Shown in pieces: positions 23,917 to 54,258 of a DNA stretch of 64,000 nt. Each line of letters starts with the position of its first letter. The stretch's first letter is position 1. Source of the DNA: Candidatus Nomurabacteria bacterium GW2011_GWD2_36_14 (GTDB lineage: Bacteria > Patescibacteriota > Minisyncoccia > Phycocordibacterales > UBA9973). The notes beneath the pieces are model-generated. The model searched no databases, was not told where the DNA came from, and saw nothing but the letters and a program-made list of their open reading frames with translations. Made by a program: the position numbers and the translations under genes. Location of the stretch: positions 3,744 through 67,743 of the forward strand of contig LBRL01000001.1 of assembly GCA_000991405.1 (NCBI GenBank). The letters run 5' to 3'.

Positions 23917-23944
23917 GATAAAATAAATAAAACGACCTCATTTG

Positions 23945-24020
23945 CTTTGTTGCAGGTTCCGGGTGCTCGGTCAATGTAGAATTACTACATATCCCTCGCA
24001 TCCTCACCTGCGCCTCGCAT
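23945..24020 (+). repeat. GC-rich ~75-nt element (copy A) between the KH gene and trmD; candidate structured RNA
   Basis: It matches the reverse complement of 58141-58214 at ~85% identity. The outer stem gcaggt...acctgc and the inner hairpin atgtag-aatta-ctacat are visible. It stands out by GC content in an AT-rich spacer. Confidence 0.5.
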
Positions 24021-24067
24021 CTGGGGTCGTTTTCTGTATTTTATTGAATTCGTGGTATATTGATTTT

Positions 24068-24805
24068 ATGCGATTCCATGTAGTAACACTTTTCCCTGAA
24101 ATGTTTGACTCTTATCTAGGAGGGTCTATTTTAGGGCGGGCAATAAAGGAGAAGAAGATTTCTGTTTCTTTTGTGAACCCTCGTAAATTTGTAACAGGCA
24201 AATATAGAAAAGTTTGGCCAGATGGCAATGTATCCCTCCAAGTAGACGAGCGTCCTTATGCCGGAGGTCCAGGGATGGTCATGATGGCAGAGCCGGTTAT
24301 CAAAGCGGTGGAATCAGTGTTGAAAAAAATTAAGAATTACGAATTAAGAATTAAGAATGGAAAAGTTAAAACTAAACAGCAAACACCAAAAAGCAAGGCA
24401 TTGATTATAAATTTTATTCCTTCCGCCGAGAAGTTTACGACAGCAGTTGCCAAAAGTATTTCCAAGAAATACACAGACGTTATTTTAATTTGTGGACGTT
24501 ATGAAGGTATTGATGCTCGAGTTGATAAAATTCTTAAAACTAAGAAGTATTCCATAGGGGACTATGTGCTGACAGGAGGCGAAATTCCCGCTATGGTTTT
24601 GATTGATTCTGTCTCCCGACAAATAGACGGAGTCTTAGGTAACTTTGATTCTCGCGAAGAGGAAAGAGTCTCTACCAGCGAGATATATACTCGTCCTGAA
24701 GTACTGATTTATAAAAACAAAAAGTATAAAGTTCCCAAGGTTTTATTATCTGGAAATCACAAAGACATAGAAGATTGGAAAAGTTTGACAAAAAGTGTTA
24801 AATAG
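24068..24805 (+). CDS. trmD: tRNA (guanine37-N1)-methyltransferase
   Basis: MRFHVVTLFPEMFDSYLGGSILGRA and LICGRYEGIDARV. The start was set at the ATG at 24068. It carries a lysine-rich internal insertion. Confidence 0.9.
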   Translation: MRFHVVTLFPEMFDSYLGGSILGRAIKEKKISVSFVNPRKFVTGKYRKVWPDGNVSLQVDERPYAGGPGMVMMAEPVIKAVESVLKKIKNYELRIKNGKVKTKQQTPKSKALIINFIPSAEKFTTAVAKSISKKYTDVILICGRYEGIDARVDKILKTKKYSIGDYVLTGGEIPAMVLIDSVSRQIDGVLGNFDSREEERVSTSEIYTRPEVLIYKNKKYKVPKVLLSGNHKDIEDWKSLTKSVK

Positions 24806-25106
24806 GATAGGATGAAATCCAGATTGAATAGATTGAGTTATGGCAAATCAATCCTCGTTTATTAAGGTTTTAGCATACAAAAGTGTTAAACAATATCATT
24901 GCCAGTAATTATAAATAAAAAATCTAAATAAGGTTTGGTCACCTTGTTGTTTTTTGCGTTTTAACTTTATTAATAGATTAAAACGAAGGCATATATTTAA
25001 AATTTATGAGTAGGTGTGGGCGCGCCGAAGCGTAACGAAGTGGAGCGGAGAGGGCTAAGCGAATAAATTTTAAATATACGCCGAAGTTGTAATCCAAATT
25101 ATTCAT

Positions 25107-28100
25107 ATGAAAAAAACAGCCGTAGTAAAGAAGTATTTTTCGCGTTACAAGAAACCCCTAGCCCCGTTTCCTAATCTTATTGAAGATCAATTAAATTCTT
25201 TTAATTGGTTAGTAGAAAAGGGAATCAAGGAAGTCTTCAAAGAATTCTCACCAATCAACGATTACTCAGACAAGAAGTTTCAGCTCGACTTTACTTCTTT
25301 TACTCTCGGAGAACCGAAATTTGATGAAGAGTATTCAAAAGTAAATAAATTAACTTACGAAGGACCACTCAAAGCTCGTGTTCGTCTTTTGAATAAAAGT
25401 ATTGGAACTTCAAAAGAACAAGAAATTTTCATGGCTGATGTACCCCTCATGACCAAGCATGGTACATTCATCATCAATGGCGTTGAACGTGTTATTGTGG
25501 CTCAGCTCACTCGATCCTTCGGAGTATTTTTCACTGAGTCAGAATCAAAAGGTAAACGATATTTTGGAGCTAAAATTATTCCTGCTCGCGGTGTTTGGAT
25601 TGAAGTTGAATCTGATTCTGATGGAGCTGTCTATGTTCGTATTGACAAGAAACGCAAATTCTCAGTCGCTTCGCTTCTTCGTGTTTTAGGATTAAATACA
25701 GATGAAGCAATACTTAAGGCTTTTGGAGATAATGAGGAAATTTTGAAAGTTATAAAAGTTTGTCTTGAAAAAGATCCAGCCAAAACTCTTTCTGAGTCTT
25801 ATATAGAGATATATAAGCGTCTTCGTGATGGAGATCTCGCTACTCCAGATAATGCTCGCGAATTTATGAGCATTCTTCTTTCAAACGAACGCTATGATAT
25901 ATCTCCTGTTGGACGTTTTCGATTTAATAAGCGTTTTGAGAAAAATATGGACGAAAAGGAAATGGAGCGTCGCACCATATCATCCGATGATGTGGTCACT
26001 ATTGTCAAGAATATTATTGATTTAAATAATGACATTCATGCAAAAGGAGACGATATCGATCACCTAGGTCAGCGCCGTGTTCGTTATGTTGGAGAAATGT
26101 TCCAACAAAAAATCCGTACTGGTATGGCTCAGATAAAGAGAAATGTTCAAGACCGTATGTCGACAATCGATGTAGGGACTACAATGCCTATACAGATAAT
26201 CAATCAGCGTCCCTTACAAGCACGTATCAAGGAATTCTTCACAGCTAACCAGCTTTCCCAATTCATGAACCAAGAAAATGTTATGGCTGAAGTCGAGCAC
26301 TTGCGCATTCTCTCAGCCTTAGGTCCAGGGGGATTAACTCGTGAACGTGCAGGTCTTGAAGTTCGTGATGTGCACACTTCTCACTATGGACGTGTCTGTC
26401 CTATCCATACTCCAGAAGGTCCAAACATTGGTCTTATATTACACTTATCTACTTATGCGAAGATAAACGAATTTGGTATTATTGAAACTCCATATGTCAA
26501 AGTCAAGAACGGCAAGATAACTTCTGAGGTTGTTTACTTAAATGCGCTTGAAGAAGAAAAGTACAATATTGCTCATGCAGGTATCGACTACGATGATAAA
26601 GGAAATATATTAGAAGACAAAGTAGAGGCTCGTCTTAAGACAAAGCCAGGTATGATTTCAAAAATGGAAATCGACTTTATCGACGTAGCTACCAACCAAG
26701 CTTTCTCTGTTGCTACGAGTATGATTCCATTCCTCGAACACGATAATGCTCACCGTACACTCATGGGAAGTAACATGCAGAAACAGGCTCTTCCTTGTAT
26801 TATTCCTGAGGTTCCTTTAGTTGCTACAGGTATCGAAGAGTTGGCAAGTCGTGATTCTGGACGTTTGGTAATTTCAGAAGTAACGGGTGTTATATCTTAT
26901 GTAGATGCCAAGAAAATAATAGTTAAAGATGATAAAGGTAAAGATCATGCTTACCCTTTGATTACTTTCTCACGTACAAACAATTTCTCAATATTCCATC
27001 AGCGCCCTTCTGTTTCTATGGGGGATAAGATAAAGAAAGGGGATGTTCTTGCTGATACAAGCACTACAGATCACGGACAGATTGCTATTGGACAGAATGC
27101 CCTTATCGCCTTTATGTCGTGGGGTGGAGCAAACTACGAAGATGCTATTATTCTTTCAGAAAGACTAGTTAAAGAAAGTAAGTTTACAAGTATTTATGTT
27201 ACAGAATTCGTTTGTAATGTTCGTGATACAAAGCTTGGACCTGAAATCACAACTCGTGATATTCCAAACGTTGGAGAAAATAAACTAAAAGATTTAGATG
27301 AAGACGGCATCATTGTCGTTGGGGCGGAAGTTGTTGAAAATGATATTCTTGTTGGTAAAATTACTCCAAAAGGGGAGACAGAACTTACTCCCGAAGAAAG
27401 ACTTCTACGTTCTATCTTCACCGAAAAAGCTCGCGATGTGAAAGATACATCACTACGTCTTGAACATGGCAAGAAAGGTAGAGTTACTGGAGTTAAGATA
27501 TTCTCACGCGACCAGGGTCACAATCTTGAATCAGGAATTATCAAGAGAATTGTTGTTGAAATTGCACAGATCAGAAACATTTCAGTTGGAGATAAACTTT
27601 CAGGACGTCATGGTAACAAAGGTGTTATTTCAGTTATATTACCTGAAGAAGAAATGCCATTCATGGCCGACGGTACACCTGTCGACGTTATTTTGACCCC
27701 ACTTGGAGTTCCATCTCGTATGAACTTAGGGCAGGTACTCGAAATGCATCTTGGTTATGCCGCTCATACACTTGGATACCAAGCTATAGTTCCTCCTTTC
27801 TCTTCAGCCACAGTTACAGAAATCAAGGAAGAACTTGTGAAGGCTGGAATGCCAGAGAGTGGAAGAGTTACTCTATATGATGGACGTACAGGAGATGCTT
27901 TCGAGCAAGATGTTGCTATTGGATATATGTATATGTTGAAGCTTCACCACATGGTTGAAGACAAACTTCATATGCGTTCTATCGGTCCTTACTCTCTCAT
28001 TACACAGCAACCTCTCGGTGGTAAGGCTCAAGGCGGAGGTCAGCGTTTCGGAGAAATGGAGGTCTGGGCTTTGGAAGGACACGGTGCTGCTTACTCCTTG

Positions 28101-28274
28101 CGAGAAATGCTTACAATCAAGTCTGATGATATTATGGGTCGCTCTCAGACATTCGACGCTATTATCAAGGGTCTACCTATCGGAGAACCAAATATTCCTG
28201 CCTCATTCAATGTTCTATTGAACTACCTACGCGGACTTTCTCTTGATGTAGAATTAAAAAAGTCGAACGAATAA
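25107..28274 (+). CDS. rpoB: DNA-directed RNA polymerase subunit beta
   Basis: Conserved RpoB blocks are present throughout, for example GRFRFNKRF, HYGRVCPIHTPEGPNIGL, NMQKQALP and GGQRFGEMEVWALE. Confidence 0.97.
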   Translation: MKKTAVVKKYFSRYKKPLAPFPNLIEDQLNSFNWLVEKGIKEVFKEFSPINDYSDKKFQLDFTSFTLGEPKFDEEYSKVNKLTYEGPLKARVRLLNKSIGTSKEQEIFMADVPLMTKHGTFIINGVERVIVAQLTRSFGVFFTESESKGKRYFGAKIIPARGVWIEVESDSDGAVYVRIDKKRKFSVASLLRVLGLNTDEAILKAFGDNEEILKVIKVCLEKDPAKTLSESYIEIYKRLRDGDLATPDNAREFMSILLSNERYDISPVGRFRFNKRFEKNMDEKEMERRTISSDDVVTIVKNIIDLNNDIHAKGDDIDHLGQRRVRYVGEMFQQKIRTGMAQIKRNVQDRMSTIDVGTTMPIQIINQRPLQARIKEFFTANQLSQFMNQENVMAEVEHLRILSALGPGGLTRERAGLEVRDVHTSHYGRVCPIHTPEGPNIGLILHLSTYAKINEFGIIETPYVKVKNGKITSEVVYLNALEEEKYNIAHAGIDYDDKGNILEDKVEARLKTKPGMISKMEIDFIDVATNQAFSVATSMIPFLEHDNAHRTLMGSNMQKQALPCIIPEVPLVATGIEELASRDSGRLVISEVTGVISYVDAKKIIVKDDKGKDHAYPLITFSRTNNFSIFHQRPSVSMGDKIKKGDVLADTSTTDHGQIAIGQNALIAFMSWGGANYEDAIILSERLVKESKFTSIYVTEFVCNVRDTKLGPEITTRDIPNVGENKLKDLDEDGIIVVGAEVVENDILVGKITPKGETELTPEERLLRSIFTEKARDVKDTSLRLEHGKKGRVTGVKIFSRDQGHNLESGIIKRIVVEIAQIRNISVGDKLSGRHGNKGVISVILPEEEMPFMADGTPVDVILTPLGVPSRMNLGQVLEMHLGYAAHTLGYQAIVPPFSSATVTEIKEELVKAGMPESGRVTLYDGRTGDAFEQDVAIGYMYMLKLHHMVEDKLHMRSIGPYSLITQQPLGGKAQGGGQRFGEMEVWALEGHGAAYSLREMLTIKSDDIMGRSQTFDAIIKGLPIGEPNIPASFNVLLNYLRGLSLDVELKKSNE

Positions 28275-38140: not shown

Positions 38141-38283
38141 TGAAAATTTGCACGACCCTCATTCAGTAGAATGACTTACGTGTGCCTCCCGCCTTGTCTC
38201 ACGACACGATTTACTAATCGGTGGTCCGGCTTTCGAATCCTCGTGCCTAATAAAAAAATACCCAAAAGGGTATTTTTTTCTAG

Positions 38284-38356
38284 AGCCGGCACGAGGATTC
38301 GAACCCCGGACATCCACTTTACAAAAGTGGCGCTCTACCAACTGAGCTATGCCGGC
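38284..38356 (-). tRNA. tRNA-Thr (anticodon UGU)
   Basis: The reverse complement GCCGGCATAGCTCAGTTGGTAGAGCGCCACTTTTGTAAAGTGGATGTCCGGGGTTCGAATCCTCGTGCCGGCT folds as a cloverleaf. The anticodon loop is TTTGTAA and the T-loop is TTCGAAT. Confidence 0.85.
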
Positions 38357-45917: not shown

Positions 45918-47216
45918 ATGAAGAAAGCTATTGATTTTAAAATTGAAAAAAGGTTAGAGGGATTTCTAGGTAGAGCAGGGACTCTGACTACACCGCATGG
46001 AGTTATTGAGACTCCGTCTTTTGTCGTTGTAGGTACAAAAGGTACAGTCAAGGCCATGACTCCCGAACAACTCAAGGAGATAGGTGTGCAAGTTACACTT
46101 GCCAATACTTATCATCTTTATCTACAACCAGGAAATGAGCTTATACGTGAGGCAGGAGGTTTGCACAAGTTCATGAATTGGCAGGGGCCCATGATGACAG
46201 ACTCTGGTGGATTCCAAGTATTTTCTCTTGGTGTGGCTTACGGCAAAGAGCTTTCCAAAGTTGTTTCTGTAACTGATCCTAGCTTGCTTATTCCGGAAAG
46301 GTCCACGGCAGAAGATGGAGTACCAAGACTTGCAACCATAGGGAACGATGGAGTTTCTTTCCGATCACACTTAGATGGATCGCTTCATTATATAACTCCA
46401 GAAAAGTCTATCGAGATTCAGCACAACTTAGGAGCCGATATTATATTTGCTTTTGATGAATGTACTTCTCCGACTGAGACTGCTCGATACCAAGAAGAAG
46501 CTCTTTCTCGTACTCACTCTTGGGCCAAGAGGAGTTTGGAGGAGCATAAGAAACGGGAGGAAGCAAAGCAAGAATATGCGAATTCTTCACGCTTTACCCT
46601 AAAGGGCTCCGACGCGACTCAGAATTCTCATATTCTTGCTTCACTTCCTCAGGCTCTCTTTGGTATTGTTCAAGGTGGACGTAGTGAAGAACTTAGGAAG
46701 AAGTCTGCTAAAGTTATAGGAGAAATGGACTTCGATGGTTTTGGTATTGGTGGTTCTTTTGCAAAAGAGGATATGTCTACTGCTGTAAAGTGGGTCAATG
46801 AAGTGCTCCCAGAAGACAAGCCTCGCCATTTACTAGGTATCGGTGAACCGGAAGACTTATTTTCTGGAGTAGAAAACGGAGTAGATCTCTTTGACTGCGT
46901 CGGCCCTACTCGCATTGCTCGCAACGGGACAATGTTTACAAAGAACGGCAAGATAAATATTCTCAATGCAAAGTTTGTAAAAGATTTTGGTTCAGTAGAT
47001 GAAGGGTGCGGTTGTAATACTTGCCAGAATTATACTCGAGCTTATCTTTCACATTTATTCCGTGCCAAGGAAATGCTAGGAGCAACCCTTGCTTCTATTC
47101 ATAATGTCTACTTCATCACAAATCTTGTAAAGCAAATGCGCAATGCTATACTAAATGATACATTCCATGAATTTAAAAATGAATTTTTAAAAAATTATGC
47201 CAAACAAAGTATTTAA
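45918..47216 (+). CDS. tgt: Queuine tRNA-ribosyltransferase, carrying an in-frame ~24-aa insertion
   Basis: TPHGVIETPSFV..., LGIGEPEDL and the zinc site CGCNTCQNYTRAYLSHL. The start is the ATG at 45918. The insertion QEYANSSRFTLKGSDATQNSHILA lies between WAKRS and ALFGIVQGG. Confidence 0.9.
   Translation: MKKAIDFKIEKRLEGFLGRAGTLTTPHGVIETPSFVVVGTKGTVKAMTPEQLKEIGVQVTLANTYHLYLQPGNELIREAGGLHKFMNWQGPMMTDSGGFQVFSLGVAYGKELSKVVSVTDPSLLIPERSTAEDGVPRLATIGNDGVSFRSHLDGSLHYITPEKSIEIQHNLGADIIFAFDECTSPTETARYQEEALSRTHSWAKRSLEEHKKREEAKQEYANSSRFTLKGSDATQNSHILASLPQALFGIVQGGRSEELRKKSAKVIGEMDFDGFGIGGSFAKEDMSTAVKWVNEVLPEDKPRHLLGIGEPEDLFSGVENGVDLFDCVGPTRIARNGTMFTKNGKINILNAKFVKDFGSVDEGCGCNTCQNYTRAYLSHLFRAKEMLGATLASIHNVYFITNLVKQMRNAILNDTFHEFKNEFLKNYAKQSI
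46569..46638 (+). repeat. In-frame palindromic miniature element (copy in tgt)
   Basis: caagaatatgcgaattct-tcacgctttaccctaaagggctccgacgcgactc-agaattctcatattcttg. It has 18-bp inverted arms and a conserved 30-bp core that is nearly identical in uvrA and uvrC. Confidence 0.85.
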
Positions 47217-49356
47217 ATTAAAGAGTGAATATAAACCCGATGGTGATCAGCCCAAGGCTATAAAAGATCTTCTAGAGGGTCTTAAGAAGGGTTTCCGTAA
47301 GCAAACACTTCTGGGTGCTACTGGTACAGGCAAGACTTTTACTATAGCCAATGTTATCGAAGAATGGGGGAAGCCGACCTTAGTCATAGCTCACAATAAA
47401 ACTCTCGCAGCTCAACTTGCTCAAGAATTTAGGGAGTTTTTCCCTGATGCCGCTGTTCACTATTTCGTGTCTTATTATGACTATTATCAGCCAGAAGCTT
47501 ATATGCCAGTGACTGATACTTATATAGAGAAGGACGCTCAGATAAACAAAGAGATAGACAGGCTTCGTCATGCTACGACGCAGTCTCTACTTACTCGTCC
47601 AGACGTCATTATTGTAGCTTCGGTCTCTTGTATTTATGGTCTAGGAAGTCCAGAAGAATATGAGAAGGTAAATTTAAAACTTGAAATTGGTTCTAAAATT
47701 AGCCGAACCGATATTATGAGAAAATTACTTGGAGTTCATTTTGAAAGAACGAATTCAGACCTTACTCCAGGAACTTTCCGTTCTATTGGAGATAGAGTAG
47801 AAGTCATGCCTATATCGGAGACTTTTATTTATCAGATAGAATTTGCAGGAGGTGCTATTTCTAAAATTTTAAAAGTAGACCCTGTGTCTGCTCATGTTTT
47901 GAAAGAAGAGCAAGGAATATTCCTTTTCCCTGCCAAGCATTTTATTACCGAGACAGAGAAAGTAAAAGTGGCGCTTAAGAATATTAAATTAGAATTGACA
48001 CAGCAATTAAAAAAGTTTGAGAAGGAAGGCAAGCTTCTTGAGGCAGAGAGAATTAAAAGACGAACCAATTATGATTTAGCTATGATAAAGGAAGTTGGCT
48101 ATTGTAGTGGTATCGAGAATTACAGTAGACAGCTTTCTGGAAAGAAGGAAGGGGAAGCCCCAGATACACTCCTCTCATATTTCAAGAGTGATTTCTTAAC
48201 TATTATCGATGAGTCTCATGTGACCCTGCCTCAGCTAGGTGGTATGTACGCTGGTGATGCCTCTCGCAAGAAGACTCTTGTAGACTTCGGCTTCCGTCTG
48301 CCTTCTGCCAAGGACAATAGGCCTCTTAAATACAATGAATTTGAAGAAAGAATTGGAGATGTCATATACGTATCAGCTACTCCAAGTGAGACAGAAAGGA
48401 CTACAAGTGCTCAGGTAGTCGAACAGATTATTCGCCCTACAGGGCTTATAGATCCAGAAATATTGGTAAGGCCAGTCTCTGTAATGGGTTCCCTTAGGTC
48501 GGACCTAGGGGCAAATAGTAAAGAATTAAAGACCCTAGGTCCGACCTATGGTCCATACCCTGGACAAATAGAAGACTTTGTACAAGAAGCCGATAGAGTT
48601 ATCAAGAAAGGTTTTCGTGCTATTGCTACGACTCTTACTAAGAAGATGGCAGAGGATCTAACTTTGTTCTTAAAAGAAAAGGGATTCAAAGCAGAGTACT
48701 TACATAGTGATATTAAAACCATAGAGAGAATTCAAATACTTTCTTCTTTTAGAAGAGGGGACTTCGACATTCTTATCGGAGTCAATTTGCTTCGCGAAGG
48801 ATTAGACTTGCCAGAGTTAGCCCTCATAGGAATCTTGGATGCAGACAAAGAAGGCTTCCTTCGCTCAGAAACTTCGCTTATTCAGATTATAGGGCGTGCT
48901 GCTCGTAACGTAGAAGGTAGAGTAGTACTATATGCTGATCATATGACCAAGGCGCTAGAGAGTGCCATAGGCGAGACGAACAGACGAAGAGATATACAGA
49001 TAGCTTACAACAAGAAGCACGGTATCACCCCCAAGACTATTATAAAAAATATTAAAGACATTACAGAAGAGCTCGAGAACAAACACGAGAAGGCTGTGAA
49101 TGTAGAGCTAGACTTGGATGTAGAATTGTTCAAGAAGACTTTTGTAACTAGCAAGAGCAATAAGGGTAAGGGAGAAAGAGAGTCTATCAAGAATTTGCTT
49201 CTTTCAGATGAAGACAGGAATAAAAGTATTTACGAGAAGATAATAAAGATAAAAGAGAAGGAGATGAATAAGGCAGTGAAAGAATTAGACTTCGAAACAG
49301 CTGCAATACTTCGAGATGAGATAATTGTTTTGAATGATAAATTTTTAGGCAAATAA
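47197..49356 (+). CDS. uvrB: Excinuclease ABC subunit B
   Basis: Walker A GATGTGKT, the helicase motifs, and the C-terminal UVR domain ETAAILRDEI. Confidence 0.95.
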   Translation: MPNKVFKLKSEYKPDGDQPKAIKDLLEGLKKGFRKQTLLGATGTGKTFTIANVIEEWGKPTLVIAHNKTLAAQLAQEFREFFPDAAVHYFVSYYDYYQPEAYMPVTDTYIEKDAQINKEIDRLRHATTQSLLTRPDVIIVASVSCIYGLGSPEEYEKVNLKLEIGSKISRTDIMRKLLGVHFERTNSDLTPGTFRSIGDRVEVMPISETFIYQIEFAGGAISKILKVDPVSAHVLKEEQGIFLFPAKHFITETEKVKVALKNIKLELTQQLKKFEKEGKLLEAERIKRRTNYDLAMIKEVGYCSGIENYSRQLSGKKEGEAPDTLLSYFKSDFLTIIDESHVTLPQLGGMYAGDASRKKTLVDFGFRLPSAKDNRPLKYNEFEERIGDVIYVSATPSETERTTSAQVVEQIIRPTGLIDPEILVRPVSVMGSLRSDLGANSKELKTLGPTYGPYPGQIEDFVQEADRVIKKGFRAIATTLTKKMAEDLTLFLKEKGFKAEYLHSDIKTIERIQILSSFRRGDFDILIGVNLLREGLDLPELALIGILDADKEGFLRSETSLIQIIGRAARNVEGRVVLYADHMTKALESAIGETNRRRDIQIAYNKKHGITPKTIIKNIKDITEELENKHEKAVNVELDLDVELFKKTFVTSKSNKGKGERESIKNLLLSDEDRNKSIYEKIIKIKEKEMNKAVKELDFETAAILRDEIIVLNDKFLGK

Positions 49357-49623: not shown

Positions 49624-49724
49624 AATGATTTAATTTCATTCTTATATTACTTATTTCAAAATCTTTGTCAAGCTTATGGTTTTGTGTTATTATGTGACTA
49701 GTTAAATATTGATTCACCCCCACA

Positions 49725-49784
49725 CCCATATTTTTATTGCAGGTAATCCTGCGTTGAAAACTATAAAAATATAGGTGTGGGGGT
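49725..49784. promoter_or_regulatory. GC-rich inverted repeat cacccccacacccatatttttat ... ataaaaatataggtgtgggggt, with G5/C5 tracts, upstream of uvrA
   Basis: It has 21-bp arms with one mismatch and a ~15-nt spacer containing the mini-hairpin gcagg-taatc-ctgc. A further tract gggggtatacaccccc follows. Confidence 0.4.
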
Positions 49785-49922: not shown

Positions 49923-52598
49923 ATGATAAAAAAAAGTGAAAATTCTGACGGGGCAAGAATAATAATAAAAGGAGCTCGTACTCACAATCTGAAGAATATT
50001 AGTGTTGAGATGCCTAGGAATAAAATGATAGTTATTACTGGTATGTCAGGCTCTGGGAAGTCTTCTTTGGCGTTTGATACTATCTTTGCTGAAGGTCAGC
50101 GTCGCTATGTGGAGAGTCTTTCGGCTTATGCCCGCCAATTCTTGAATCAAATGCCGAAGCCCGATGTCGATGAGATTACTGGTCTTTCTCCTGCTATTTC
50201 TATAGACCAGAAGTCTCGGTCGAACAATCCTCGTTCGACAGTTGCGACCATCACTGAAATATATGACTATCTTCGTGTTCTTTATGCACGTATCGGGCAC
50301 CCTCATTGTCCAGAATGTGGCAATGAGATCAAGAAGCTTTCAAATGATGAAATACTTCACTTTGCCATAGATAAGATAAAGAATTTTCAAAAGGATAACA
50401 AGAAAAAGAAAGTAATGGGTGTCGAATGGAACGAAGCACCTATCTCCATTCTTGCTCCTGTTGTTCGAGGTAGGAAAGGTGAGTATTATCAACTTCTTTA
50501 TGATTTACTCAATAAAGGATTTGCCGAGGTTCGTCTCGATGGACAGATCAAGAAACTAAGAGAGAGAATCGATATTACGAAGACAAAGAAACACGACATA
50601 GAAGTTATCGTAGATACTTTCGCTATTCATGAATTTAAAGACAATGAGAAGGATTCTTACTCAAGATTAGCTGAGAGTGTTGAGAGGGCTCTATTAGAGT
50701 CAGACGGACTTGTAATTATTAAAATAGATGAAGATGAATACCTTATGTCTTCCAAGTTCTCTTGTGCTATTGACGGCTTCGCTTTTCCTGAAATAGAGCC
50801 TAGGCTCTTCTCTTTCAATTCTCCGTACGGAGCCTGTCCTACTTGTAATGGGCTTGGTACCAAGTATTTTGGTGGCACAGAGCCCTGCGATGATTGTAAG
50901 GGCTTGCGATTACGACCTGAAGCACTTCATGTATATTTAGGCCAATCCGCTTCGCAGAAACATAAAAATTCTTCCCGCTTTACCCTAAAGGGCTCCGACG
51001 CGGATAAGAATTTTCATGTTTCTGCTTCGCTTAACATTGTAGATGTTACGAAGTTATCAATCGCTGATGTTGCTGACTTTTTTATTGAACTACAGTTGAA
51101 TGATCAAGAAAAGGAAATTTCGAAGGTTGTCATAAAAGAGATTGAAGCTCGAATACAATTCTTACTGAACGTAGGGCTTGATTATTTATCACTCGATAGA
51201 AAAGCCAATACTCTCTCAGGAGGAGAAGCACAGAGGATACGCTTGGCTTCACAGTTAGGTTCACGACTTGTCGGAGCTTTGTATGTACTCGATGAACCGA
51301 CGATAGGTTTACACCAGAGAGATAATGATAAACTCATCAAGACACTAGAAAATCTTCGTGACCTAGGGAATACTATCATAGTAGTTGAACACGACGAAGA
51401 TACTATATATGCATCGGATTATATTGTAGATATAGGCCCGAAAGCTGGAGTACATGGAGGGCAAGTTATCGTGTCGGATTATTTACAAGATTTACTAGAT
51501 GCACCAAAGAACGTTTCTAATTCTAGAACTTTGGCATATCTTAGAAATGAAGTCAGAATAGAAATTCCAGAGAAAAGAAGGAATAGTGATAAGGGTGCTA
51601 TTAAAATAATTGGAGGTAAAATTTTCAATATTGAAAATTTAAATGCGGAAGTTCCACTAGGAAAGCTTGTAACTATTACTGGAGTATCAGGAAGTGGGAA
51701 GAGTTCCTTTGTGTATGAGATTATTCACAAGAATCTTCAGGCCAGATACGAAAGGAAGTTTAGAACAGCAAAGATTTTCAACTGTGCATCTTTCACTGGG
51801 ACGGAATATGCTTCTCGCGTCGTTCTTATCGATCAGTCTCCGATAGGCCGTACTCCTCGCTCCAACTTGGCTACTTATACAGGCGCCTTTACTCATATCC
51901 GTGACATGTTTGCCTTAAGTGAAGAAGCAAGGCTCAAAGGTTGGAAGGCCAATAGATTCTCTTTCAATGTGAAAGGTGGGCGTTGTGAAGCTTGTGAAGG
52001 TAATGGCGAGGTAGCGGTAGAGATGCACTTCCTTCCTACTGTGTATGTCACTTGTGACGTATGTAATGGCAAGAGATTCGATAAGGAGACCCTGACTGTG
52101 AAGTACAAGAAGAAGAATATTTATGAAGTTCTTCAAATGACAGTTGAAGAAGCGATTGTGTTTTGGGAAGATATTCCGGCTGTTTATGATCGTATGAAGA
52201 CTCTTATGGAAGTCGGTCTTGGCTATGTGAAACTTGGTCAGTCTGCTACAACTCTCTCAGGAGGAGAAGCACAACGTGTGAAAATTTCTTCAGAACTTTT
52301 TAGACCATATGAAGAGAAAACAATATATCTATTAGACGAGCCAACAGTTGGACTTCATTACGATGATGTAGCTAAGTTGCTTGAAGTTTTGAATAGACTT
52401 GTAAATAAAGGCAATAGTGTAGTGGTAATAGAGCACAATATGGATATTATAAAGTCTTCAGACCATATCATAGATATTGGTCCTGAAGGAGGGTTAGGTG
52501 GTGGCAAGATTGTAGCTAAGGGAACTCCTGAAGAAGTTGCTAATACAATAGGAAGTCATACGGGTAAATATCTTAAAAAAGTTTTGAAGAGGAAATAA
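49923..52598 (+). CDS. uvrA: Excinuclease ABC subunit A (short, 891 aa), carrying an in-frame insertion
   Basis: It has two ABC modules (GMSGSGKSSL, GVSGSGKSS, LSGGEAQR twice) and zinc fingers. The insertion QKHKNSSRFTLKGSDADKNFHVSA follows PEALHVYLG. Confidence 0.95.
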   Translation: MIKKSENSDGARIIIKGARTHNLKNISVEMPRNKMIVITGMSGSGKSSLAFDTIFAEGQRRYVESLSAYARQFLNQMPKPDVDEITGLSPAISIDQKSRSNNPRSTVATITEIYDYLRVLYARIGHPHCPECGNEIKKLSNDEILHFAIDKIKNFQKDNKKKKVMGVEWNEAPISILAPVVRGRKGEYYQLLYDLLNKGFAEVRLDGQIKKLRERIDITKTKKHDIEVIVDTFAIHEFKDNEKDSYSRLAESVERALLESDGLVIIKIDEDEYLMSSKFSCAIDGFAFPEIEPRLFSFNSPYGACPTCNGLGTKYFGGTEPCDDCKGLRLRPEALHVYLGQSASQKHKNSSRFTLKGSDADKNFHVSASLNIVDVTKLSIADVADFFIELQLNDQEKEISKVVIKEIEARIQFLLNVGLDYLSLDRKANTLSGGEAQRIRLASQLGSRLVGALYVLDEPTIGLHQRDNDKLIKTLENLRDLGNTIIVVEHDEDTIYASDYIVDIGPKAGVHGGQVIVSDYLQDLLDAPKNVSNSRTLAYLRNEVRIEIPEKRRNSDKGAIKIIGGKIFNIENLNAEVPLGKLVTITGVSGSGKSSFVYEIIHKNLQARYERKFRTAKIFNCASFTGTEYASRVVLIDQSPIGRTPRSNLATYTGAFTHIRDMFALSEEARLKGWKANRFSFNVKGGRCEACEGNGEVAVEMHFLPTVYVTCDVCNGKRFDKETLTVKYKKKNIYEVLQMTVEEAIVFWEDIPAVYDRMKTLMEVGLGYVKLGQSATTLSGGEAQRVKISSELFRPYEEKTIYLLDEPTVGLHYDDVAKLLEVLNRLVNKGNSVVVIEHNMDIIKSSDHIIDIGPEGGLGGGKIVAKGTPEEVANTIGSHTGKYLKKVLKRK
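50955..51024 (+). repeat. In-frame palindromic miniature element (copy in uvrA)
   Basis: cagaaacataaaaattctt-cccgctttaccctaaagggctccgacgcggat-aagaattttcatgtttctg. The arms are complementary to each other but differ from those of the tgt and uvrC copies. Confidence 0.85.
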
Positions 52599-52992: not shown

Positions 52993-54258
52993 ATGAATAG
53001 TCAACAGGTCAAAAAAATAGGTTTGCCAGATAAATCAGGGGTTTATTTTTTCAAGGTGGGGGATAAGATTCTCTATATAGGCAAGGCCACTTCTTTGCGG
53101 GATAGGGTAAAGAGCTATTTTTCTAAGGATATCATCGTTACCAGAGGGTCACATATCTTAGATATGACGGTAAAAGCGGATAGGGTAGAATGGCAGGAAA
53201 CTGGTAGTGTGCTGGAAGCCTTAATACTTGAGGCGAACTTAATAAAGAAATATAAGCCGAAATACAATACCAAAGAGAAAGACAATAAGAGTTTCAACTA
53301 TGTCTGCATTACCAAAGATAAATTACCCAAGGTTTTAATTGTTCGTGGTAGAGGAATGGATAAAAAGTTGTATAGCAAAGTTTATGGTCCATTCCCCAAT
53401 GGTCAGCAATTAAAAGAAGCGATGAAAATCATTCGTAGAATTTTCCCGTATTTTGATAATGATTCGTTAAAGAAAAATAATAGAGAATTTTACAAACAAA
53501 TAGGATTAGTACCTATAGTTGAATATAAAAACAATATAAAGAATCTTAAATTATTTTTCGAAGGGAAAAAGAAAAGCATAATAATAAATTTGAAGAAGGA
53601 AATGCTAGCTTTTGCAAAAAAGAAAGAATTCGAGAAAGCTGGTGAAGTTAAGAATAGAATTTTTGCTTTGAATCATATAAATGATGTTGCTCTTATAAAA
53701 GAAGATTTAATTGCTCCACAGAAAAACGCTTCACAGGAATATGCGAATTTTTCGCGCTTTACCCTAAAGGGCTCCGACGCGACTCAAAATTCGCATATTC
53801 CTGTTTCGCTTTTTCGTATCGAAGCTTATGATGTGGCTCACATGGGAGGCAAGGATATGGTGGGAGTTATGACTGTCGTTGAGAATGGTGAAGTCAATAA
53901 AAGTGAATACAAGAAGTTCATTATCAGAACTCAAAGTGATGCGAATGACACAGGAGCACTCGAGGAAGTACTTTCTCGTAGATTGCGTCATACAGAGTGG
54001 GGACTACCTAGTTTGGTTGTTGTCGACGGTAGTACCGCTCAAGTAAATGTGGCCAAGAGAATTCTTGCCAGATATCAGTTTAAGGTACCTATAGTCGGAG
54101 TTGTGAAAGATGACAAACATAGACCGAAAGCACTTATAGGGAGTGAAGAAATAATTAAAATATACAAAAAGCAGATCCTACTTGCCAATAGTGAGTCGCA
54201 TAGGTTTGCAATTACTTTCCATAAACAAAAGAGAAATAAAAGTTTCTTAAATAAGTAA
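52993..54258 (+). CDS. uvrC: UvrC-like excinuclease (GIY-YIG N-terminus; short, lacks the C-terminal HhH/RNaseH-like region), carrying an in-frame insertion
   Basis: The GIY-YIG motif is GVYFFKVGDKILYIGKATSLRDRVKSYF. A UvrBC-interaction-like region is present. The insertion is QEYANFSRFTLKGSDATQNSHIPV. Confidence 0.75.
   Translation: MNSQQVKKIGLPDKSGVYFFKVGDKILYIGKATSLRDRVKSYFSKDIIVTRGSHILDMTVKADRVEWQETGSVLEALILEANLIKKYKPKYNTKEKDNKSFNYVCITKDKLPKVLIVRGRGMDKKLYSKVYGPFPNGQQLKEAMKIIRRIFPYFDNDSLKKNNREFYKQIGLVPIVEYKNNIKNLKLFFEGKKKSIIINLKKEMLAFAKKKEFEKAGEVKNRIFALNHINDVALIKEDLIAPQKNASQEYANFSRFTLKGSDATQNSHIPVSLFRIEAYDVAHMGGKDMVGVMTVVENGEVNKSEYKKFIIRTQSDANDTGALEEVLSRRLRHTEWGLPSLVVVDGSTAQVNVAKRILARYQFKVPIVGVVKDDKHRPKALIGSEEIIKIYKKQILLANSESHRFAITFHKQKRNKSFLNK
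53734..53803 (+). repeat. In-frame palindromic miniature element (copy in uvrC)
   Basis: caggaatatgcgaatttt-tcgcgctttaccctaaagggctccgacgcgactc-aaaattcgcatattcctg. It has perfect 18-bp arms. Confidence 0.85.

Follow-up and report, generated by a model that had tools for sequence, protein, structure and literature searches.

An in-frame hairpin repeat in the short uvrC gene of a Nomurabacteria genome: probably one copy of a dispersed protein-coding palindrome of Paceibacteria

What is a perfect palindrome doing inside the reading frame of a DNA-repair gene, and is the protein that carries it still a complete nuclease? The uvrC gene of Candidatus Nomurabacteria bacterium GW2011_GWD2_36_14, a very small bacterium from groundwater, raises both questions. 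It lies in a 64,000-nt stretch of DNA, referred to here as the window (assembly GCA_000991405.1, contig LBRL01000001.1, positions 3,744 to 67,743 of the forward strand), which is about 36% G+C and has the majority of its genes on the + strand. A first reading made from the letters of this DNA (the original prediction) described a repeated palindromic element in uvrC and suspected that the short protein had lost part of its incision machinery. The analysis reported here indicates that the insert is probably a copy of a dispersed 78–84-nt hairpin repeat of Paceibacteria (Parcubacteria, candidate phyla radiation (CPR)), that is, a non-autonomous, selfish, protein-coding palindrome comparable to the Rickettsia palindromic elements (RPEs) and tolerated in a linker of UvrC.

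The palindrome in uvrC is real. Two 18-nt arms, at 53734-53751 (CAGGAATATGCGAATTTT) and 53786-53803, are exact reverse complements of each other (100%) and are separated by 34 nt, just as the original prediction had described them, and outward of these arms a weaker palindrome extends to 53723-53814 (29 nt, 86%). The 98-nt hairpin region folds with −43.6 kcal/mol as RNA (z −7.9) and with −29.3 kcal/mol as single-stranded DNA (z −7.0), values equalled by none of 200 shuffles in either case. The whole insert occupies 53728-53811 of the + strand (KNASQEYANFSRFTLKGSDATQNSHIPVSLFRIE is the sequence across it). It comprises 84 nt or 28 codons in frame with the open reading frame (ORF) 52993-54258, reads ASQEYANFSRFTLKGSDATQNSHIPVSL (residues 246-273), and scores 97 bits with the covariance model of the family. 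The two arms form the outer stem, the 3′ arm being preceded by an inner stem, CGCGA, and a 3-nt bulge (CTC). Between them lies the 27-nt centre CGCTTTACCCTAAAGGGCTCCGACGCG (53755-53781, + strand), which includes the 20-mer found in at least 46 genomes and a mini-hairpin with the stem CCC/GGG.

The element is not confined to uvrC. Its central 20-mer, TTTACCCTAAAGGGCTCCGA, occurs three times in the window against none expected from shuffles, each time on the + strand and within an ORF, namely those of tgt, uvrA and uvrC. The tgt copy (46563-46646, AKQEYANSSRFTLKGSDATQNSHILASL) and the uvrA copy (50949-51032, ASQKHKNSSRFTLKGSDADKNFHVSASL) are likewise in frame and score 85 and 89 bits, respectively, with the covariance model, so that the description of the uvrC palindrome as a further in-frame copy of a repeated element holds. 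Its core had also been called identical to that of the tgt copy; 33 of the 34 inter-arm positions match (TCGCGC vs TCACGC), and it is the 27-nt centre that is identical in all three copies. Over the full 84 positions the uvrC insert agrees with the tgt copy at 72 and with the uvrA copy at 67, identity among the three ranging from 66 to 72, and each copy encodes a 28-residue peptide of the pattern A(S/K)Q..(A/K)N.SRFTLKGSDA..N.H...SL. The three span 7.3 kb out of 64 kb (p ~0.036), and a covariance-model search of the window with filters off found no further copy; the next match (29 bits) is an unrelated hairpin. Orthologous copies of the element inserted in uvrA are present in three other sequences (L011, L031, L059). 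In another species, Nomurabacteria fen_1328 (L034, L066; contig PMDZ01000011), the tgt-uvrB-uvrA-uvrC cluster also bears three copies with the LKGSD core, and its uvrA and uvrC copies occupy sites other than those in the window.

Orthologous uvrC genes are found with and without the insert. The closest insert-free UvrC, that of Nomurabacteria GW2011_GWE2_34_25 (P0008/L118), has 393 residues, is 80% identical to the protein of the window and is encoded in the same gene order, uvrA-uvrC-ddl-gpsA. Its linker reads HINDISLIKEEIYGSPTSIFRIEAYD, where the window has HINDVALIKEDLIAPQKN followed by the insert and FRIEAYD. Among 80 metagenome orthologues taken as an unbiased uvrC sample, both anchor motifs were located in 61, and in these the linker length is bimodal, being 9-17 residues in 37 loci and 27-41 residues in 24. 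All 24 long linkers are strong hairpins (−15 to −48 kcal/mol), and they are built on at least five unrelated centres. These are the LKGSD type of the window, whose loop variants PEGPY and QSTGAY retain the CCC/GGG mini-stem and differ in its loop, the type KVLGSPRDY.RPDH, the type FSVLRPSPNTGR, and several more. Some short linkers (L160, L169) look like remnants of arms alone, and the commonest empty linker, GSPTS, is itself a 6-bp mini-palindrome (GGAAGTCCGACTTCC). UvrA behaves likewise at three sites, with insert-free orthologues at sites 2 and 3.

The insert triples a UvrC linker that natively has 10-15 residues, at the position where other bacteria have the domain PF22920. An AlphaFold model built with 73 homologues gave a predicted local distance difference test score (pLDDT) of about 30 at residues 230-272 and about 90 at the nuclease domain (273-412). 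The low score is consistent with, though not proof of, a disordered loop in an inter-domain linker, and nothing suggests that UvrC is disabled by the insert.

With 421 residues, UvrC is as unusually short as had been stated, and the question is what it has lost. In canonical UvrC, as established by the groups of Goosen, Sancar, Van Houten and Verdine, the 3′ cut falls to the GIY-YIG domain and the 5′ cut to the RNase H-like domain, and the C-terminal tandem helix-hairpin-helix, (HhH)2, aids DNA binding and the 5′ cut. The E. coli protein (610 residues) consists of five Pfam units: GIY-YIG, UVR, PF22920 (251-368), PF08459 and HhH (557-608). In Pfam and NCBIfam scans of the window protein (ORF 52993-54258, + strand), three of these five were recognised. 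The GIY-YIG nuclease domain lies at residues 16-92 (53038-53268; PF01541, E 8e-7, 29.7 bits against a cut-off of 22.6) and matches the structures 1yd6 and 1ycz with E 1e-12 to 1e-13. The UVR motif, which binds UvrB, lies at residues 195-226 (53575-53670; PF02151, E 7e-6, 26.1 bits with the cut-off at 21.5). It is followed by the RNase H-like catalytic endonuclease domain at residues 269-402 (53797-54198; PF08459, UvrC_RNaseH_dom, E 1.2e-32). Solved structures of the C-terminal nuclease domain of UvrC (3c65, 2nrt) can be aligned with residues 274-419, and the catalytic D/D/H is kept, with FRIEAYD(VAH), VVVDGS and SESHRFA aligning with RIEGIDISH, LFVDGG and DETHRFA of 2nrt from T. maritima. The chain stops two residues past this alignment. 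PF22920, the non-catalytic RNase H-like middle domain, gave no Pfam match at E up to 1, and no HHH family matched in the Pfam scan. By BLAST, residues 14-231 correspond to E. coli 17-241 and residues 275-359 to E. coli 394-480, leaving E. coli residues 242-393 without a counterpart. It follows from the Pfam architecture and the BLAST alignment with E. coli UvrC that PF22920 and (HhH)2 are missing and the endonuclease is not.

The original prediction was therefore right that no HhH region is recognisable and wrong that the C-terminal endonuclease is likewise missing; two units are truly absent, and the full E. coli architecture is not compressed into 421 residues. Its suggestion that 3′ incision may be missing fails twice, because both the GIY-YIG domain responsible for the 3′ cut, together with UVR, and the RNase H-like domain responsible for the 5′ cut are present. 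Nor did the idea that another protein supplies the missing part find support within the window, where phmmer with the E. coli segments detected no separate HhH or PF22920 fragment below E 0.15. As far as sequence can tell, both incision nucleases are kept in this UvrC and the lineage has lost PF22920 and (HhH)2, and since the nuclease is present the question becomes how the 5′ cut proceeds without (HhH)2, not whether the nuclease is lost.

The short form is normal for the lineage and not peculiar to this gene. All 120 best homologues have 391-486 residues and carry only PF01541, PF02151 and PF08459, none of them with HhH; where named, they come from Nomurabacteria or Paceibacterota. The identical protein is encoded on 31 contigs, four independent assemblies among them, adjoining uvrB and uvrA, which in the window lie upstream of uvrC on the same strand (47197-49356 and 49923-52598, respectively). 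Compared with canonical UvrC of E. coli and T. maritima, the protein thus shares GIY-YIG, UVR, the catalytic RNase H-like domain with its active site and the proximity to uvrA and uvrB, and differs in lacking PF22920 (E. coli ~251-368) and (HhH)2. Its score with TIGR00194 (243.2 bits, in two separate stretches) falls below the cut-off of 285.45. It also differs from Cho, which keeps the N-terminal half only and to which it shows a weak match (E 2e-13; the cut-off is 367 bits). UvrC of this lineage carries additions elsewhere as well: 41 of the 120 homologues have an insert of at least 10 residues after GLIP (between residues 174 and 175), and others have one after RGR (around residue 120; 124-126). 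In L119 the post-GLIP insert forms a hairpin that belongs to a further family (LEVQHQDGFGCCTSKA; with arms at L119:1650-1664 and 1677-1691), and one uvrC may bear three inserts, with a length of up to 486 residues.

The family reaches far beyond the window. It was collected by exact match of the 20-mer in a collection of species-representative genomes, and all counts refer to the matches listed. Stretches that contain the 20-mer number more than 113 and belong to at least 46 genomes of Patescibacteria, with up to 12 copies per genome among these. All matches that bear a group name are from Patescibacteria (Nomurabacteria, Nealsonbacteria, Vogelbacteria, Minisyncoccales and Paceibacterota, including metagenome-assembled genomes (MAGs) labelled 'Saccharibacteria'), a statement that covers the group-named matches, a few others being titled only 'uncultured bacterium' or 'bacterium'. 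The 'uncultured Candidatus Saccharibacteria' MAGs, deposited as third-party annotations (TPA; L048, L018, L105 and others), encode a short, Nomurabacteria-like UvrC, in one case 70% identical to that of the window, and their label looks unreliable. An assembly or amplification artefact is ruled out by the recurrence of the same structure in dozens of independent projects. A phage vector is unsupported, the 20-mer being absent from the 2.9 million viral contigs of IMG/VR. A scan of the element region against Rfam with E up to 10 returned chance matches to microRNA-precursor and snoRNA models only (E at least 0.15, far below gathering scores), and no description was found in the literature on palindromic elements of CPR/Patescibacteria or for the core sequence. 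Work on RPEs in MAGs and on UvrC and HhH in Parcubacteria likewise yielded nothing. The element thus appears to be undescribed, with no Rfam family and no matching description in the literature searched.

About 40% of the distinct copies (42-45 of 121, the range being set by the ORF criterion) lie inside long ORFs, at 14 or more distinct sites in UvrA (three sites), UvrC (two), Tgt, RNase HII, LigA, DprA (two), leucyl-tRNA synthetase (LeuRS), isoleucyl-tRNA synthetase (IleRS), an RluA-type pseudouridine synthase, TsaD and WecG/TagA. All coding copies follow the orientation of the gene and read the core as F-T-L-K-G-S-D, with the sole exception of L111, which has another frame and different flanks. 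The restriction to one orientation and one frame arises because the remaining frames hold stops or are hydrophobic: no frame on the reverse strand of the core is free of stops, a TAA interrupts frame +1, and frame +2 is open but hydrophobic and cysteine-rich. A loop variant without a reverse-strand stop does occur reversed in UvrC (L144, L157; WSRVGAPGERVKRDNF). Two of the synthetases hold further domains besides the hairpin insert, LeuRS of L050 a NUDIX domain (386-505) and IleRS of L045 a histidine-phosphatase domain (524-691). The remaining ~75 copies fill short gene spacers, often from a stop codon to the next start, and those between co-directional genes prefer the sense orientation (40 vs 11 antisense, p 6e-5).

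An alignment of 114 copies, from 46 genomes among the matches listed, displays a centre that does not vary, an inner stem (CGCG) bulged by 3 nt on its 3′ side, and an 18-bp outer stem that differs from copy to copy, in many cases with the palindrome running on into copy-specific flanks. All 18 pairs of the outer stem show changes on both sides. Paired cells amount to 86% compared with 64% in shuffles (none of 500 reached the observed value), and the covariation score is 0.49 compared with 0.08-0.14 when the partners are slid. Between copies the arms differ by 38-48%, and only CAG...CTG and GCTTCGC recur in coding copies. The centre evolves far more slowly: in the unbiased uvrC set, LKGSD-type copies differ at one or two of 27 positions in the centre and at up to one third in the arms, which suggests that the loop matters for propagation or for some function. 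At orthologous sites, the identity of the arms tracks that of the host protein (Spearman 0.62, p 3e-7), so that copies mostly evolve in place.

The way in which the stem changes is informative about the level at which it is maintained. Among 312 differences between orthologous copies, 208 are double changes, nine are wobble pairs and 95 are unpaired, and transversion flips, A-T to T-A for example, are frequent. On the sense strand, 26 G.T (G.U) pairs are found compared with 92 A.C mismatches, which concentrate at one mid-stem position of one intergenic subfamily (TCTAAAATTT/AAATTTCAGA; alignment columns 25-28 x 79-83) and would be G.T on the opposite strand. Compensation at the RNA level would pass through G.U and favour transitions; since flips are common, we infer a templated process at the DNA level. 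In quasipalindrome template switching, which was worked out by Ripley and, in E. coli, by the Lovett laboratory, one arm is copied from the other and an imperfect repeat becomes perfect. This would yield near-simultaneous double changes such as those seen between orthologous copies. It is a mutational process and not an element, and leaves the conserved loop and the dispersal unexplained.

These results fit together as follows. The element would have landed in the linker that joins the UVR helix to the RNase H-like catalytic domain in a naturally short UvrC, and would be read through in the sole orientation and frame that are both stop-free and hydrophilic, thereby adding a disordered 28-residue loop that the enzyme probably tolerates. 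Intron-like removal or ribosome bypass has no positive evidence in its favour; every coding copy is open and has a length divisible by three, for which simple read-through is explanation enough, less firmly so for the invariant centre. Because conservation is far stronger in the loop than in the stem, the family may spread, or may formerly have spread, by a mechanism based on recognising single strands that are folded and bear a sequence-specific apical loop, in the way that hairpin-recognising enzymes act on repetitive extragenic palindromic (REP) sequences, IS200/IS605 ends and attC sites. The arms would be kept complementary mainly by a templated process, either quasipalindrome template switching or arm-to-arm conversion, because changes on both sides dominate, transversion flips included, and wobble intermediates are almost absent.

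Several observations weigh against this account of a selfish hairpin. No insertion polymorphism was seen within the species, all four assemblies of which carry the three copies, and mobility is a deduction from presence and absence between species rather than an observed event. The insert, likewise, is seen as an intact reading frame and would be translated, not removed. No transposase partner turned up, although no search was aimed at the REP-associated tyrosine transposase (RAYT), TnpA, IntI or a parent insertion sequence. Arm distance is 0.38 within a genome compared with 0.48 between genomes, and the nearest neighbour lies in the same genome for 18 of 92 copies, which rules out that copies within one genome stem from a recent burst. 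That the core is nearly invariant is partly an effect of the exact-match search, and orthologous copies with one or two core substitutions or with other loops exist. The sense preference of intergenic copies is not obviously predicted by a purely DNA-level selfish element. Finally, target-site duplication is not consistent: direct-repeat matches in the flanks average 2.36 of 7 compared with 1.75 in the control, and this signal comes from a subset flanked on either side by the heptamer GCTTCGC (a perfect match in the uvrA copy, 5/7 in uvrC). In copies outside this subset the palindrome just extends outward (3.92/7 vs 1.94), and a GCTTCGC-like target is weakly enriched in empty sites (4.14 compared with 3.77 of 7).

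Could the hairpin instead serve the host? It might be a functional cis-acting structure of mRNA, a site at which a protein or RNase governs processing, stability or translation of operon transcripts and which is tolerated inside codons. Strong covariation of the stem, the conserved apical loop, the conservation of the core at synonymous positions of coding copies and the sense-biased placement of intergenic copies in short co-directional spacers (40 vs 11) all accord with such a role. Selection on RNA should, however, leave G.U pairs as its hallmark, and these are rarer than A.C on the sense strand (26 vs 92), just as wobble intermediates make up only nine of the 312 orthologous differences amid many transversion flips. 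For any one site, many close relatives have nothing inserted; cores of unrelated sequence occupy a single place in UvrC; a related core works in reverse (L144, L157); and no Rfam family matches. A cis-acting RNA is on balance unlikely, albeit a reading to be taken seriously. The absence of a known recognised motif tells in turn against a host-serving DNA signal, that is, a core read in extruded hairpins by a protein for binding, segregation, uptake or repair. An exact core across many genomes would suit that role, as would the conserved mid-stem A.C mismatch of one subfamily, which recalls protein-recognised hairpins, and the clustering in DNA-repair genes (three copies in 7.3 kb, p ~0.036, with the same cluster hit elsewhere in fen_1328). 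The density is low, about three copies per 64 kb, occupancy differs among relatives and unrelated cores take the same sites, all of which makes the DNA signal improbable.

The protein itself offers two further explanations. The recurrence of SRFTLKGSDA in many proteins in the same frame could mean that the 28-residue insert is a selected functional module of UvrC, UvrA and Tgt, for example a binding peptide. About 60% of the copies are intergenic, however, many with in-frame stops; synonymous positions of the core are fixed while the residues encoded by the arms vary freely, AlphaFold predicts no structure for the insert, and orthologues do without it. A selected peptide is the least probable of the explanations considered. 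Scarcely more credence is due to the view taken in the original prediction, by which UvrC is left without its C-terminal nuclease, with one incision either lost or carried out by some other protein. The length of 421 compared with 610 residues in E. coli, the TIGR00194 score of 243 compared with 285 bits and the lack of an HhH match are what speak for it. It is refuted for the nuclease domain by PF08459 (E 1e-32) and by catalytic D, D and H residues aligned to solved structures, and it is further opposed by the presence of GIY-YIG and UVR, by the failure to find HhH or PF22920 encoded separately in the window (best E 0.15), and by an architecture kept in 120 of 120 close homologues adjoining uvrA and uvrB.

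As a selfish protein-coding palindrome, the family comes closest in behaviour to the RPEs. RPE-1 and related elements (Ogata et al., 2000, 2002) show unusually frequent in-frame insertion according to a 2024 review of MITEs (miniature transposable elements with inverted repeats), which mentions no case from Patescibacteria (PMC10969869). Both groups are short dispersed palindromes of small genomes, with in-frame copies in unrelated housekeeping genes and others in intergenic regions; in both the reading frame gives a conserved hydrophilic peptide, several families exist, and orthologues occur with and without the insert. RPE copies are alike over their whole length, whereas the element described here combines a freely covarying stem with a conserved 20-27-nt apical loop. 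It differs further in its host (Patescibacteria versus Alphaproteobacteria), in its size (~84 nt versus ~150 nt) and in the occupation of the same host sites by unrelated cores. The likeness is drawn from description, and no sequence relation is known.

The other known systems share single features. As in REP sequences or bacterial interspersed mosaic elements (BIMEs) mobilised by the IS200/IS605-like RAYT, in IS608 ends and in attC sites, a hairpin forms the recognisable unit, and the intergenic copies, placed between genes of the same direction, are biased in orientation. As in those hairpin substrates, a mismatch or bulge in the stem is conserved, and the structure is kept more than the stem sequence, as in attC. 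REP sequences, however, are extragenic, 20-40 nt long and carry GTAG 5′ of the stem, whereas the element is ~84 nt, about 40% intragenic and without GTAG. An attC site conserves its outer ends, whereas the element conserves its loop; and in-frame coding copies are a feature of the element, not of the REP, IS608 or attC systems. With MITEs such as Correia, ERIC, RUP, BOX and the cyanobacterial ones (PMC10969869), it shares small size, non-autonomy, dispersal, inverted repeats and occasional in-frame fusions, but its arms, which vary between copies, do not look like a conserved terminal inverted repeat, and no parent insertion sequence is known. By the classical marks it is neither a MITE, having no consistent target-site duplication, nor a REP, being intragenic and lacking GTAG.

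Hairpins of other kinds also occur in the window. A different in-frame hairpin interrupts uvrB at 48492-48551, with 19-nt arms that are 95% complementary and 22 nt apart; it reads VMGSLRSDLGANSKELKTLGPTYGPYPGQ and resembles an insert ahead of the conserved GQIEDF. Together with the family copies, this places in-frame hairpins in uvrA, uvrB, uvrC and tgt, all within 8 kb. The spacer from tRNA-Thr/tRNA-Pro to uvrA holds a 22-bp stem (49716-49784; 95% complementary, ACCCCCACACCCATATTTTTAT) with a 25-nt centre unlike the family core; this is the top non-family match of the covariance model (29 bits). A long inverted repeat at 24976-25094, with 32-nt arms that are 84% complementary and 55 nt between them, occupies the spacer of ORFs 23942-24805 and 25107-28274 and may belong to another family of hairpin elements. 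The 24-nt inverted repeat at 38224-38311 (92%) is a duplicated tRNA fragment: one side is the 3′ portion of tRNA-Thr (38283-38356, minus strand), the other an inverted partial copy of it immediately upstream. Palindromes seem to disturb assembly here: relative to window positions 46272-46300, another assembly of the same species (L003, GCA_000991335.1) is without 29 nt of tgt, its tgt gene call falling into two pieces, and in the L004 assembly a stretch of Ns falls at the tgt hairpin's 5′ arm (window 46570-46585).

On a wider and more tentative view, Paceibacteria might hold an undescribed superfamily of protein-coding hairpins that repeatedly colonise linkers in housekeeping genes, the three uvr genes all among them, and that have a conserved apical loop and a free stem whose complementarity is renewed by DNA-level templating. 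Should this hold, somewhat short of an even prospect at present, protein-coding palindromes, so far regarded as peculiar to Rickettsia, would not be unique to that genus, and a hairpin-specific propagation system that reads the loop would remain to be found. If the family is indeed of the selfish or semi-selfish kind, such hairpins would be a general route to longer protein linkers in very small genomes. There may then be a factor able to read a hairpin loop of 20-27 nt. The hundreds of orthologous filled and empty sites would form a large natural dataset on how long palindromes endure and remain perfect inside genes. Gene callers and protein-family models would systematically mis-score such proteins, as with this UvrC, which falls below the NCBI equivalog cut-off. 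For excision repair itself, a lineage-wide UvrC without (HhH)2 and PF22920 would offer a natural minimal excinuclease in which the roles of those domains can be tested.

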